Below, one piece after another: positions 8,675 through 50,422 of a stretch of DNA of 64,000 bases. Within the stretch, counting starts at the first letter, position 1. Every line of letters begins with the position of its first letter. The stretch is from the sequence record MT446390.1; one strand, 5' to 3'. The DNA comes from Escherichia phage TH12. The translations under genes were made by a program, and so were the position numbers. Below the pieces are notes generated by a model. That model searched no databases. It was not told the DNA's origin and saw only the letters and a program-made list of their open reading frames with translations.

Positions 8675-9148
8675 ATGATTATCAATGAAAACTCTTGGCA
8701 CTTTAAAATTTATGCCGCGTTCAATAGTACATGGAATCGTCCGAAAACGTTGTGTGCTTATTTTTGGAAAACGTTAATCCCAGTATTGTCTGTTTCAATT
8801 ATTGGATTTGCGATTTTAGCAGCAGTCGTAATCATTGGCCAGGAAATTTTAACTAGATTCTTTGTTTTTAGCAGTCTATGGACATTAGTTCCGGCCTCAA
8901 TTGGCGTAGGCATTTTAATGGTAGCAGTCATGTCTCTTATTGCTGTCGGGTTGGTAATTGGCCCGTCTTGGTTGTTAGACAAATATAACGACAGAAAATA
9001 TTATAAAGAAGTTGAGCTCATTGCACAAAACCAAGAACGAATTAAAAATGGACTTGAGCCTATTGAACGTAAGAAATCATTAATAGGTGAATACCTTAAA
9101 GCTCGTAAAGAAAAAGTCTGTCCTACTCTTGAATATAAGGCTAAATGA
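8675..9148 (+). CDS. Membrane protein (157 aa)
   Basis: Two to three hydrophobic helices (LIPVLSVSIIGFAILAAVVIIG; VPASIGVGILMVAVMSLIAVGLVIG). Confidence 0.6.
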   Translation: MIINENSWHFKIYAAFNSTWNRPKTLCAYFWKTLIPVLSVSIIGFAILAAVVIIGQEILTRFFVFSSLWTLVPASIGVGILMVAVMSLIAVGLVIGPSWLLDKYNDRKYYKEVELIAQNQERIKNGLEPIERKKSLIGEYLKARKEKVCPTLEYKAK

Positions 9149-17692: not shown

Positions 17693-18166
17693 ATGTTATT
17701 ATCTGGCAAATTATACAAAGAAGAAAAACAAAAATTTTATGATGCACAGAACGGTAAGTGTCCTATTTGCCACCGTGAATTAGACCCTGATGTTCAAGGT
17801 AACCATCTTGACCACGACCACGAGTTAAACGGGCCAAAAGCCGGTAGAGTTCGTGGATTACTCTGTAATCTGTGCAACGCAGCAGAAGGCCAAATGAAGC
17901 ATAAGTTCAACCGTTCTGGTCTTAAAGGTCAAAACGTTGATTACCTCGAATGGCTTGAAGCTCTTCTTGCTTATTTGAAACAAGATTATTCTGATAATAA
18001 TATCCATCCTAATTTTGTTCCAGACAAAACTAAAGAGTTCTCAAGACTAGGTAAAGAGGAAATGATGGCTGAGATGCTTCAAAGAGGATTTGAATATACT
18101 GAATCTGATACTAAAACACAATTAATAGCTTCATTCAAAAAGCAGCTTAGAAAGAGTTTAAAATGA
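17693..18166 (+). CDS. 49: Endonuclease VII (Holliday-junction resolvase)
   Basis: MLLSGKLYKEEKQKFYDAQNGKCPICHREL...HLDHDHELNGPKAG...LCNLCN matches T4 gp49; 157 aa. Confidence 0.95.
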   Translation: MLLSGKLYKEEKQKFYDAQNGKCPICHRELDPDVQGNHLDHDHELNGPKAGRVRGLLCNLCNAAEGQMKHKFNRSGLKGQNVDYLEWLEALLAYLKQDYSDNNIHPNFVPDKTKEFSRLGKEEMMAEMLQRGFEYTESDTKTQLIASFKKQLRKSLK

Positions 18167-45899: not shown

Positions 45900-46268
45900 A
45901 TGAAAAAATTAATCACTTTAGCAATGGTATTTGGATTAACCGGATGTGGTGCCCATGGCTTTATCCCTAATAATGTTGGCCAATTGATTTATAACCCGAA
46001 TGTTAAACAGTACAACCAACCTAAAGTTGAAGTGGAAGACCCGGTTACTGTAGGTAATCGAATGATTCAAGCTGATGCCCATGCTCAACGTTATCGTGAT
46101 TCTGATACTGTAGCATTGTCAAAAGAACAACGCGTTAAAGAACATTGTCTACAGGCTACTGAAATCGCATTCATTCGCTATGTTGAAACAACTGGTAAAG
46201 AGCCTTCCCAGAAACAAATCGCGAATAACTACGTCCAGTGTATTGAACGTTTAAACAAATTTAATTAA
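45900..46268 (+). CDS. Lipoprotein (122 aa)
   Basis: Signal peptide MKKLITLAMVFGLTGC with lipobox LTGC; own early promoter. Confidence 0.65.
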   Translation: MKKLITLAMVFGLTGCGAHGFIPNNVGQLIYNPNVKQYNQPKVEVEDPVTVGNRMIQADAHAQRYRDSDTVALSKEQRVKEHCLQATEIAFIRYVETTGKEPSQKQIANNYVQCIERLNKFN

Positions 46269-46329
46269 TTGGTTTACGCCAAAGTTAAAACAAGATACTA
46301 TAAACATAACAAATCAAGAGGAAATTAAC

Positions 46330-46578
46330 ATGGAATTATTCGTAGCTAGTTCAGTAGCAGTTTTAATCGCAGGTATTGGTTCAATCATCATTTACATGTT
46401 GCCTTGGGTAATCGCACTTATTCGTGGCACAAAAAGCACAACAGCAATCTTCTTTGTATCTTTACTCTTTAACTGGACGATGATTGGTTGGATTGGAACT
46501 TTAATTTGGTCTATCGTTGCCGAAAAGAAATCTGCTCAGCAGCCTCAACAAGTAATTATTATTCGCGAAAAAGAATAA
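46330..46578 (+). CDS. Superinfection-immunity (Imm)-family membrane protein
   Basis: LPWVIALIRGTKSTTAIFFVSLLFNWTMIGWIGTLIWSI resembles Imm-family signature; 82 aa, two TM. Confidence 0.65.
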   Translation: MELFVASSVAVLIAGIGSIIIYMLPWVIALIRGTKSTTAIFFVSLLFNWTMIGWIGTLIWSIVAEKKSAQQPQQVIIIREKE

Positions 46579-46641
46579 ACTTGTTTACATTATAGATGGA
46601 CTATGGTATAGTAGTCCTATCAAATCAACTAAGGAGTTAAA

Positions 46642-46935
46642 ATGAAAAAGTTATCATTGGCAGCAATCTTACTCGCAGTATCATGTGCACCAGCTCCAGT
46701 TACAGCAGGTTATGATAAAGACCTCTGTGAGTGGTCAATGACTGCAAATCAAGAAGATGTTGAACAACAAATCTTCTCTGATATCGTGAACATCACTAAA
46801 CGAGACCGTCCTAATATGGTTAATAAAGTTGTTGAACAACTTAAGTCTGGCGGTATCATGCAGTACAACTATGTTTTGTATTGTGACCCTAATTTCGATA
46901 ACAAAGATATCGTAACCGAAATCACAGGTGAGTAA
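46642..46935 (+). CDS. sp: Spackle-like periplasmic superinfection-exclusion protein
   Basis: Signal peptide MKKLSLAAILLAVSCAPAPVTA then GYDKDLCEWSMTA...SGGIMQYNYVLYCD, as recalled for T4 Sp (61.3); 97 aa. Confidence 0.7.
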   Translation: MKKLSLAAILLAVSCAPAPVTAGYDKDLCEWSMTANQEDVEQQIFSDIVNITKRDRPNMVNKVVEQLKSGGIMQYNYVLYCDPNFDNKDIVTEITGE

Positions 46936-47805: not shown

Positions 47806-48273
47806 ATGGGTATTATTAACACTGCAATAGATTCTGTTTACGCATATAAGTTTATTCGACTAATGCAAAAACCTTTTACCGAATGGAAAGCGTACGAAGC
47901 CAAAATAATCGACGAACGTGGAAGTGTTCTTAAACGTCCTTCTACTCCCGAAGAGAAAGCGGCTTATACACCTTTTCATGCTTCAGTTCGTTCAATGAAG
48001 CGAATGATGAGTACTGTTCCAGGTCTTAATGGAATGGCCTCAATGATGTCTGCCTGGAGTGCTGTAGCTTCACGCTATAACATTACAGAAGAACAGCAGA
48101 AAGAAATATTTAAAGAACTCCCTTTATTTGAGGATATGGTGGCTGGTGATTCAGGTGGCAGTCCTCAAGCTATTGCATCAGGAACTACTACAGGTGCAAT
48201 TGTAAATAAAGGTCCAGAACAAATTCCTTCCAAGAAAAGAAAGCGAATTAAAGTAAATATTAATAAGTTGTGA
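47806..48273 (+). CDS. Hypothetical protein (155 aa)
   Basis: Internal ATG after AGGAGG. Confidence 0.55.
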   Translation: MGIINTAIDSVYAYKFIRLMQKPFTEWKAYEAKIIDERGSVLKRPSTPEEKAAYTPFHASVRSMKRMMSTVPGLNGMASMMSAWSAVASRYNITEEQQKEIFKELPLFEDMVAGDSGGSPQAIASGTTTGAIVNKGPEQIPSKKRKRIKVNINKL

Positions 48274-48312
48274 TAAGATGGCCTTATTAATTTAAGGCCT
48301 CTGGAGAATACT

Positions 48313-49335
48313 ATGGCTGAATGGATAGATAATGAATTTGCTTATCGTGCGTTTTCTCACCTCCCTCGTTTTAGACAAATCAATAATTCAAGCACATTTA
48401 AATTAACATTTCGTTGTCCAGTTTGTGGCGACTCTCAGACAGATGCAATGAAAGCCCGCGGATGGTATTATGGCGGTACTCCAGGTAATGTGCATTGCTA
48501 TAACTGTCAATATCATAATACAATTTCTGGATACTTAAAAGAGTACGATGAAGAGCTTTATCGCGAGTATCTAATGGAAGTTCGTAAAGAAAAAGCTAGA
48601 ATGGAACCAAAGATTGAAAAGGTTCCTGAAGCTAAGCCGGAGCCAGAGAAAAAGACTATAAATTCTTTGCCGTCTTGTTCTCGTCTGGACAAGTTGCCTG
48701 AAGAGCATCCTATTGTGAAATATGTTAAGTCTCGGTGTATTCCTAAAGAATCATGGAACAGATTATGGTTCACATTAGAATGGCCCAAATTGGTCAACAA
48801 GATTCAACCTGGTACGTATAAGAAAGAGATTCCTGAACCGCGTTTAGTGATTCCTATTTTTAATAAAGATGGGAAGGCCGAGTCATTCCAAGGACGTGCA
48901 CTTCGTAAAGATGCTCCTCAGAAATATATCACTATTAAAGCGTTTGAGTCTGCAACAAAAATTTATGGTGTTGAACGTGTTAAGGAAGGAGACGTCTGGG
49001 TAATGGAAGGTCCTATTGATAGTTTATTCATACCCAATGCAATCGCTATTACAGGCGGCTCAATAGATTTAGATGTGGTACCATTTAAAGAACGTCGGGT
49101 ATGGGTAATGGATAATGAACCTAGGCATCCAGATACTATAGCTCGTATGAAGCGATTAGTTGATGCAGGCGAACGTGTCATGTTCTGGGACCGAGCTCCA
49201 TGGAGATCAAAGGATGTGAATGATATGGTAATGAAAGAAAATGCAACACCACAAGAAATTTTAGAATATATGAAACAGAATATTTCAAGTGGGTTGCATG
49301 CTAAAATGAGATTATCTCGTTATTCGAAGATTTAA
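48313..49335 (+). CDS. 61: DNA primase gp61
   Basis: N-terminal zinc ribbon CPVCGDS...CYNC and TOPRIM-like region; 340 aa; position upstream of 56. Confidence 0.9.
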   Translation: MAEWIDNEFAYRAFSHLPRFRQINNSSTFKLTFRCPVCGDSQTDAMKARGWYYGGTPGNVHCYNCQYHNTISGYLKEYDEELYREYLMEVRKEKARMEPKIEKVPEAKPEPEKKTINSLPSCSRLDKLPEEHPIVKYVKSRCIPKESWNRLWFTLEWPKLVNKIQPGTYKKEIPEPRLVIPIFNKDGKAESFQGRALRKDAPQKYITIKAFESATKIYGVERVKEGDVWVMEGPIDSLFIPNAIAITGGSIDLDVVPFKERRVWVMDNEPRHPDTIARMKRLVDAGERVMFWDRAPWRSKDVNDMVMKENATPQEILEYMKQNISSGLHAKMRLSRYSKI

Positions 49336-49529
49336 ACAAGCCCTATAATAGCAAAGGCCAAATCAACTACAGTATCCAATGGAACAGAAGGAACTATAAT
49401 ACCATTAGCAACTAACAATGGTGCAATCCCGAAGTTCCATGAAATAATGCCACCTACAACTATTGCAGCGATAGCAGTTTTCTTTTTATTGCCTTTAATA
49501 GCGTTGATTAACGATGGAAGTTTAAACAT
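49332..49529 (-). CDS. Small membrane protein (65 aa), only minus-strand gene called
   Basis: On minus strand ATG preceded by AAGGAG at 5-nt spacing; two hydrophobic helices; fills an otherwise ORF-free gap between 61 and 56. Confidence 0.6.
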   Translation of the reverse strand: MFKLPSLINAIKGNKKKTAIAAIVVGGIISWNFGIAPLLVANGIIVPSVPLDTVVDLAFAIIGLV

Positions 49530-49618
49530 AATATCTCCTTAGTTACCTATTATTTATTACGCTTTATAAAATTAATGTTAGAATTAAACTCTCTTACACT
49601 GAATTGAAAGGAAAAATA

Positions 49619-50140
49619 ATGGCGCACTTTAACGAATGTTCACAACTTATTTCTGGTGTTGATAAAGCAGAAGAAGCTTATTTTAATGCTCTGATTCACG
49701 AAGATAAAGACCCACTGCAGGTAATGCTTGATATGCAGAAATCTTTACAGGTTCGTTTGGCAAATGACAAGCCTGAACATAACAAACATCCTGATGAATT
49801 GGCTACTGCCGGTGATGTTGTTGATTGGCTGCGTAATCAGAAAGATTATATTGATGATGAATTCCGTGAACTGTTGACTTCACTTGGCGGTATGAGCAAT
49901 GGTGAAAAAGCCGCCAGCAGTGTATGGAAGCCGTGGAAAGCACAACATGCCGAATATCGTAATCGTCGTATCGATGAACTGTCTCCTGAAGACCAGCTTG
50001 AAATTAAATTCGAGATGATTGATATCCTCCACTTTGTTCTGAACATGTTCCAAGGCCTTGGACTTACTGCAGAAGAAATCTTTAAACTTTACTACTTGAA
50101 AAACCAACACAACTTTGAACGCCAGGATAATGGTTACTAA
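49619..50140 (+). CDS. 56: dCTP/dCDP pyrophosphatase gp56
   Basis: 173 aa; internal ATG (MAHFNEC); MazG-like; position between 61 and soc. Confidence 0.85.
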   Translation: MAHFNECSQLISGVDKAEEAYFNALIHEDKDPLQVMLDMQKSLQVRLANDKPEHNKHPDELATAGDVVDWLRNQKDYIDDEFRELLTSLGGMSNGEKAASSVWKPWKAQHAEYRNRRIDELSPEDQLEIKFEMIDILHFVLNMFQGLGLTAEEIFKLYYLKNQHNFERQDNGY

Positions 50141-50146
50141 TTAAGT

Positions 50147-50154
50147 TATAAATA
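50147..50154 (+). promoter_or_regulatory. T4 late promoter (TATAAATA) for soc
   Basis: Exact TATAAATA ~35 nt upstream of soc ATG. Confidence 0.65.
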
Positions 50155-50185
50155 CACCTGTAATTAAACAACAAAGGAGTTAATT

Positions 50186-50422
50186 ATGGGTGGTTACGTT
50201 AATATCAAAACCTTTACACATCCGGCTGGCGAAGGCAAAGAAGTTAAAGGTATGGAAGTTTCTGTACCGTTTGAGATTTATTCAAACGAACATCGAATTG
50301 CAGATTCCCATTACCAAATCTTTCCATCAGAAAAGGCAGCTTATTCTGATGTCGTTTCTGATGCAGCAACTTGGAAAACTAAGAACGCTGCAATGTTTAC
50401 CCCTACACCAGTAAGTGGTTAA
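50186..50422 (+). CDS. soc: Small outer capsid protein Soc
   Basis: GYVNIKTF...HYQIFPSEKAAYS...matches T4 Soc pattern; 78 aa; SD AAGGAG. Confidence 0.85.
   Translation: MGGYVNIKTFTHPAGEGKEVKGMEVSVPFEIYSNEHRIADSHYQIFPSEKAAYSDVVSDAATWKTKNAAMFTPTPVSG

Follow-up and report, generated by a model that had tools for sequence, protein, structure and literature searches.

Why does one small open reading frame (ORF) in the 64,000-nucleotide stretch of Escherichia phage TH12 analysed here (record MT446390.1; hereafter the window) point in the direction opposite to that of all of the approximately 120 early and middle genes around it? The ORF occupies positions 49332-49529 of the minus strand, where it converges with the DNA primase gene 61, and was singled out by an initial annotation, made from the sequence alone, as the only convincing minus-strand ORF among these plus-strand genes. 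We find it to be a genuine protein-coding gene. It is not a discovery: the gene is annotated, conserved and uncharacterised, and the reading of it that we consider probable is that of a conserved T-even gene, of the RB69ORF029w/T4 Dam.1 family, for a bitopic protein of the inner membrane, 65 residues long, whose synthesis is confined to the late phase of infection.

The coding sequence (CDS; MFKLPSLINAIKGNKKKTAIAAIVVGGIISWNFGIAPLLVANGIIVPSVPLDTVVDLAFAIIGLV) specifies 65 amino acids between an ATG start and a TAA stop, and its assignment is supported by the ORF call, a full-length match to the PHROG family phrog_2024, orthologues and the ratio of nonsynonymous to synonymous substitution rates (dN/dS). 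Under a codon model whose training set was the long genes of the plus strand, it ranked first among all minus-strand ORFs of the window with 19.4 bits (runner-up, 10.6 bits). A Shine-Dalgarno (SD) sequence, AAGGAG (49535-49540, minus strand), precedes the ATG with a spacer of 5 nt and is found in the same place in relatives; AAGGAG-N4-9-ATG occurs only this once on the minus strand of the whole window, and GGAGG or AAGGAG stands at the equivalent place in nine of ten convergent copies, the exception being that of Dhakavirus NC-G, which has TGGAG only. At the other end, the stop codons of the primase gene (plus strand, 48313-49335; stop at 49333-49335) and of the ORF (complement of 49332-49334) interlock, the two convergent TAA codons overlapping in the four nucleotides TTAA (49332-49335), as they also do in T4, Moon-, Gelderland- and Marfavirus and Enterobacter phage MY742. 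The CDS at the same coordinates in phage JS09, JS09_0153, is the lone one on the opposite strand from JS09_056 to JS09_0178, a run of about 120 genes. The singular orientation, the well-spaced AAGGAG, the convergence with gene 61 and the 4-nt overlap at the 3' end had all been noted in the initial annotation and all stand. Its view that the gap between genes 61 and 56 is the only sizeable one does not, this 268-nt gap being ordinary beside other plus-strand gaps of 270-334 nt in the window.

The initial annotation had missed both the existing records of the gene and its wide conservation. The region around the ORF is 97-98% identical at the DNA level to coliphages of the RB69/JS09 type (Mosigvirus, Tevenvirinae) and base-collinear with JS09, and the gene is RB69ORF029w of RB69, JS09_0153 of JS09 and Dam.1 (T4Tp032) of T4T, annotated as a hypothetical protein in hundreds of genomes and found in the same position, convergent with gene 61 and with the same 4-nt overlap. 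Its product matches, at 100% identity, hypothetical proteins annotated in JS09, PhAPEC2 and other phages, differs from RB69ORF029w at two residues and shares about 52% identity with T4 Dam.1, which has the same length. It matches phrog_2024, a PHROG family listed as of unknown function, with E=1.4e-26 (residues 1-65 on positions 1-65 of a 65-position profile; E=1.5e-31 for the T4T protein). In the T4 RefSeq record NC_000866.4 an intact orthologous ORF, recognised in the sequence and annotated in T4T (HM137666), lies on the plus strand at 17738-17938 (2739-2939 of locus L003), in the 309-nt gap between dam and 61, and was left unannotated; the Dam.1 proteins of these two records are one residue apart (A/T at position 25). 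T4 carries dam between Dam.1 and gene 56, whereas the phage analysed here has no dam there.

A tblastn search found a homologue in 734 phage records. Primase-adjacent homologues occur in Mosig-, Tequatro-, Dhaka-, Gapriver-, Moon-, Gelderland-, Marfa- and Jiaodavirus and in Enterobacter phage MY742, and the window ORF, too, occupies the location typical of the family, flanked by the 3' end of gene 61 on one side and by 56 (or dam) on the other; of the nine lineages examined, eight retain the convergent layout with gene 61. With a profile weighted toward Mosigvirus, a full HMMER search through 1.84 billion cluster representatives returned two matching clusters only, a word-indexed profile search returned 92 proteins of about 47-69 amino acids, all from T4-like phage contigs and with uninformative names, and Foldseek against viral structures found family members only. 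The family appears from these searches to be confined to T4-like phages of Enterobacteriaceae. We found no paper in the literature on 'dam.1' or 'RB69ORF029w', and the locus goes unmentioned in the CRISPRi-ART and HIDEN-SEQ papers. Knock-down libraries targeted to ribosome-binding sites are described as designed on "all annotated CDSs"; given that the T4 RefSeq record lacks the orthologue, this gene may have been passed over by screens that took annotated CDSs as their starting point. T4 is among the most thoroughly studied viruses, and the omission leaves a small gap in what is known of it; a conserved, probably late membrane protein makes a cheap and well-defined knock-out target.

Conservation is concentrated at particular residues. 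Across the family alignment, in which identity to the window protein drops to about 20%, W31 and N32 are invariant among 101 distinct sequences (100%), followed by P37 and G43 (99%) and by P47, E/D52 and G63 (98%). The family core reads W-N-[FYL]-x3-P-x5-G-x3-P-x4-[DE] ... G, to which the window protein contributes W31, N32, P37, G43, P47, D52 and G63, and the tail motif reads ...P.[VIM]..[DE]. Among Mosigvirus copies, variable sites fall at codon positions 1, 2 and 3 in the proportion 7/0/16; JS09 and RB69 differ by 12 synonymous and 2 nonsynonymous changes (P=3e-6 under neutrality), and dN/dS is 0.05-0.2 in more divergent pairs (0.09 between Mosig- and Dhakavirus, at a proportion of synonymous differences, pS, of 0.71). 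These comparisons indicate that the protein is under purifying selection.

Residues 1-17 of the protein form a basic, amphipathic segment with five lysines (K3, K12, K15-17) and no acidic residue (N-side charge +5/0). In a hydrophobicity-scale scan, the insertion energies (dG) of which are reportedly those of Hessa et al. 2005, residues ~18-41 were the sole segment with a transmembrane (TM)-compatible value (dG 2.4 or lower). Residues 42-65 contain, in order, G43 and P47 (both conserved), P50, the acidic position 52 (likewise conserved), D56 and a 9-residue hydrophobic end stretch; the C-terminal 24 residues, which end in AFAIIGLV, contain no basic and two acidic residues (C-side 0/-2). An AlphaFold2 model built on an eight-sequence alignment, with a mean predicted local distance difference test score (pLDDT) of 80, places helices at 3-11, 15-41 and 51-62, the C-terminal one being 12 residues long. 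The initial annotation had predicted a membrane protein with two hydrophobic helices. The one membrane-length hydrophobic segment at ~18-41 bears out the former point, and two helices are a fair description of the hydropathy plot, but a two-pass helical hairpin is not supported: segment 44-62 has a dG of about +8 and contains P47, P50, D52 and D56; the second-best 19-mer in all 14 of 14 homologues has a dG of +5 to +12, with 2-3 prolines and 1-2 acidic residues; the modelled C-terminal helix has only its 12 residues; and the entry for RB69ORF029w in the supplement of Nolan et al. 2006 (PMC1524935) gives, by TMHMM, one TM (21-41) and lists no signal peptide. The positive-inside rule would favour, above other topologies, an N-in protein with one span and a short C-terminal tail facing the periplasm.

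The opposite orientation had been taken to imply separate regulation, and this is supported by a candidate promoter. Upstream of the ATG and separated from it by 21 nt, at 49551-49558 of the minus strand, is a late-promoter-like box, AATAAATA, the A(-13) variant of TATAAATA; transcription is predicted to start at about 49544-49546 on the minus strand, which would give a leader of about 16 nt. The T4 late promoter TATAAATA spans -13 to -6 and is perfect at 32 of 50 listed sites, A(-13) being the commonest natural variant (9 of 50); variant T4 late promoters are active in vitro and some are linked to in vivo 5' ends (PMC2988020). In RB69 and related T4-like phages, both A and T are common at -13 of predicted late promoters (PMC1524935). 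T4 early and middle transcripts share one polarity, and the opposite polarity is used by late transcripts only (PMC2988020). A T4 differential RNA sequencing (dRNA-seq) preprint (bioRxiv 10.1101/2024.04.04.588121) reports 150 phage transcription start sites, 22 of them antisense. An equivalent box stands ahead of the homologues as a perfect TATAAATA in Marfavirus and Enterobacter phage MY742, as GATAAATA in T4 and as CATAAATA in Gapriver- and Dhakavirus, where it precedes a two-gene unit. A motif scan further showed that the core ATAAATA is depleted about 3.7-fold in the window, with 8 copies against 29.3+-5.6 expected from dinucleotide-preserving shuffles. Four of the five plus-strand copies (1551, 6736, 6959, 17657 and 50148) lie 24-31 nt before the ATGs of a rI.1-like ORF (6767), rI (6992), gene 49 (17693) and soc (50186), the AATAAATA variant also preceding rI and gene 49, and one of the three minus-strand copies (2802, 49557 and 61403) is the one ahead of our ORF; no convincing ORF follows those at 1551 (+), 2802 (-) and 61403 (-), the longest being of 41 amino acids. 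We infer, with good support, that the gene is expressed late from AATAAATA as a gp55-type late promoter.

The divergent neighbour on the other side, the dCTPase gene 56 (plus strand, 49620-50140; identified, like gene 61, from the ORF list and the JS09 annotation), has a putative MotA-type middle promoter of its own (GCTTTA, 12 nt, TAGAAT; 49561-49584, plus strand), recognised in the sequence and corresponding to RB69 Pm:16038 (score 21.6; PMC1524935 supplement). Gene 56 would therefore be independent of read-through across the ORF, and since the middle promoter and the late box stand back-to-back, the 88-nt spacer may be described as a divergent middle/late control region.

What the inversion may achieve is suggested by a comparison with soc and gene 49 (and e), which are likewise late genes with a TATAAATA-type promoter amid early and middle genes. 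In T4 these genes are silent on early read-through RNA through hairpins that hide the ribosome-binding site. Soc and gene 49 keep the early polarity, whereas the window ORF is inverted and thereby off the early and middle transcripts; their boxes (TATAAATA for soc, AATAAATA for gene 49) also lie 29-31 nt before the ATG rather than 21 nt. Because an inverted gene cannot be expressed from early or middle read-through transcripts, from every one of which it would be absent, synthesis would be confined to the period after the onset of late transcription, driven by the strong ribosome-binding site of the gene and its gp55-type late promoter. Such insulation by orientation would represent a second way of silencing a late gene inside the T-even early region, besides hiding the ribosome-binding site.

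The protein so produced would have its basic amphipathic N-terminus in the cytoplasm, a single helix at ~18-41 whose end bears the conserved W-N-[FYL]..P.....G, and then, facing the periplasm, an acidic tail of 24 residues kinked by prolines. The most strongly conserved residues are those where the helix ends on its outer side and those of the adjoining tail, which points to a specific contact on the periplasmic side of the inner membrane; the protein may act through a membrane or periplasmic partner bound by the conserved WN..P..G..P..E surface. The T4 antiholin RI, holin T and i-spanin PseT.3 belong to the same predicted topology class (cytoplasmic N-terminus, one helix, C-terminus outside), and are late proteins acting at the periplasmic face. 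They differ from the window protein, with which they share no sequence or profile similarity, in having a periplasmic part of ~70-180 residues as opposed to ~24, and in being lysis-control proteins, whereas the window protein has no known genetic link to lysis. We tentatively propose that the window protein takes part, from the periplasmic side, in an envelope event late in infection (the timing or inhibition of lysis, for example, or protection of the infected-cell envelope), although the odds are against this particular assignment; prohead assembly at the membrane is, at the level of a guess, a further candidate beside lysis timing or inhibition and envelope protection. More speculative still is the notion that a near-universal, strictly late, single-pass T-even protein has been overlooked which is a missing part of a classic late envelope process, its inversion blocking the early synthesis of a protein harmful to the membrane. 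Through the WN..P..G..P..E surface, such a protein could help to time or inhibit lysis, to assemble membrane-bound proheads or to guard the cell, late on, against secondary infection.

A number of observations weigh against the late, envelope-directed protein described above. The box in the window is a one-mismatch variant of TATAAATA; its equivalent is degraded to the weaker ATTAAATA in Moon- and Gelderlandvirus; and the hidden Markov model (HMM) scan of RB69 for late promoters by Nolan et al. (PMC1524935) lists no site ahead of RB69ORF029w. In Jiaodavirus the copy is without a late box and has early-gene polarity, such that late-only expression is not universal in the family. The topology call was built on simple scales and a shallow, eight-sequence AlphaFold2 model. 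As to an envelope or lysis role, searches of Pfam, NCBIfam and PADLOC with the window protein and 11 diverse homologues gave no meaningful match, and a profile search of the PDB gave chance matches to transmembrane helices only (E>0.09). Our literature search found no transcript, peptide or phenotype data for the gene in any phage, and nothing in the present evidence ties the protein to lysis or to another process.

Among the alternatives, the one that fares best, improbable as we consider it, is that of an accessory host-interaction gene, comparable to dmd, imm and sp, which would serve superinfection exclusion or counter-defence against membrane-associated abortive infection. The gene sits in the 41-56 segment together with dmd, imm, imm.1 and sp, and Imm and Sp, encoded 2.5-3 kb upstream in the window, are likewise small membrane or periplasmic proteins that mediate superinfection exclusion. 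The restriction of the family to Enterobacteriaceae phages would fit such a gene, as would its history of duplication and decay, a turnover typical of accessory genes. Two paralogue types can be distinguished by sequence comparison, a, starting MLKL.SLI.AIKG, and b, starting MGT.FYQIWKL (paralogue loci L005 1501-1907, L021 668-1074, L006 and L018 at ~1700-1800, and L019 478-700): in Gaprivervirus (UPEC01, VR25) the two form a tandem with a first, PSD2001 and TH22 have a truncated or decayed b, Dhakavirus NC-G has a frameshifted b upstream of a, and Marfavirus has the b type only. We note in passing that the b copy carries the wrong label 'DNA packaging ATPase' in UPEC01 and SAKp28. Against an accessory function speak the position and sequence of the gene, which are unusually stable for an arms race (at least 10 lineages, low dN/dS), and the failure to find a PADLOC match. 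The known exclusion and counter-defence genes nearby are early and on the other strand; Imm and Sp, moreover, have known phenotypes and are unrelated in sequence to the window protein.

We regard it as somewhat less probable that the protein is a holin or holin-like lysis effector permeabilising the inner membrane. While it is small, membrane-embedded and probably late, and while the family member of phage OE5505 is named 'Holin' in the BFVD/UniProt tables, nothing visible supports this label, and GenBank lists the protein as 'hypothetical protein'. None of 11 diverse members matched a Pfam or NCBIfam holin family, even at E<=10; the charge cluster is N-terminal, and the charged hydrophilic C-terminus typical of holins is missing. 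T-even phages, furthermore, already have holin T, and the ORF is not adjacent to a lysis gene.

Marginally weaker again is the case for cis-antisense regulation, according to which a late transcript starting at 49545 on the minus strand would run into the antisense of gene 61 and lower late primase synthesis through duplex RNA or collision, the ORF being incidental or secondary. The layout lends itself to this: the genes converge with a 4-nt overlap, this convergence has been kept in all but one of the lineages examined, and no terminator-like hairpin is found on either strand within 48200-50300, hence none between gene 61 and the ORF. Transcription of both strands, each at its own time, is also established for some T4 sites (PMC2988020). 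Constraint, however, is on the protein, as seen in the 7/0/16 distribution of variable sites, a dN/dS of about 0.1 and residues conserved at 20-50% overall identity. An RNA structure signal is lacking on either strand (z = +1.5 and 0.0 against shuffles), and there is no Rfam match. A non-coding RNA was rejected as a candidate on these same two grounds, fold energies on either strand being no better than those of shuffles.

Two lineages also speak against an antisense function. In Jiaodavirus (about 140 Klebsiella phage records) the homologue is inverted, lying on the same strand as 61 and 56 and between two hairpins, which removes the gene 61 antisense; the protein is retained, and still contains the core WNY..VP.....HG...PP.PLE. 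Because the core was kept despite the inversion, what is conserved is the protein and not the antisense relation. The copy of Klebsiella phage vB_KpnM_17-11, for instance, recognised in the sequence at 1397-1640 of locus L017 and co-directional with 61 and 56, has a hairpin (GGGGC-CAAA-GCCCC) directly before its ATG, is without an obvious SD sequence and ends in the hairpin GGAGGATT-GCTTTAAG-AATCCTCC. In Dhakavirus NC-G, the hairpin ATAGGGAG-GAAA-CTCCCTAT, followed by ATTTT, separates the small ORF from the primase stop (898-930 of locus L019); most other lineages examined show no hairpin at this place but the 4-nt overlap. The constraint on the protein, the inversion in Jiaodavirus and the NC-G hairpin make it unlikely that an antisense effect is what selection has maintained. 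In the late membrane-protein reading that we prefer, the late transcript would still enter gene 61 in antisense, with no terminator before it, and a side effect on the primase messenger RNA is possible.

That the ORF is a chance product of an AT-rich spacer, spread by annotation pipelines, is hardly credible and is refuted by the comparative data: it is short, has no known domain, goes unannotated in the T4 RefSeq record and would be expected on the minus strand with a probability of about 2% (65 open codons after a given ATG), but the protein is conserved in 734 phage records, down to ~20-30% identity and with residues 98-100% conserved, is under purifying selection, has the best coding score on its strand and a conserved SD sequence and promoter box, and was kept after inversion.

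The surroundings of the gene are those of an RB69-type phage. The early/middle block of the plus strand includes, in order, denV, nrdC, 55, 46, 45, 43, uvsX, 41, dmd, imm, sp, 61, 56, soc, modA/B, dda, 39 and rIIA.1. Compared to T4 (window 45900-46935 and 49336-49619), imm.1 and imm lie between 61.4 and sp, and dam is missing between 61 and 56, which is the known RB69-type arrangement. The runner-up among the minus-strand ORFs (8758-8982, minus strand; 74 amino acids, 10.6 bits) lies wholly within a plus-strand membrane-protein gene homologous to RB69ORF104c and is, for this reason, probably a by-product of the composition of that gene.

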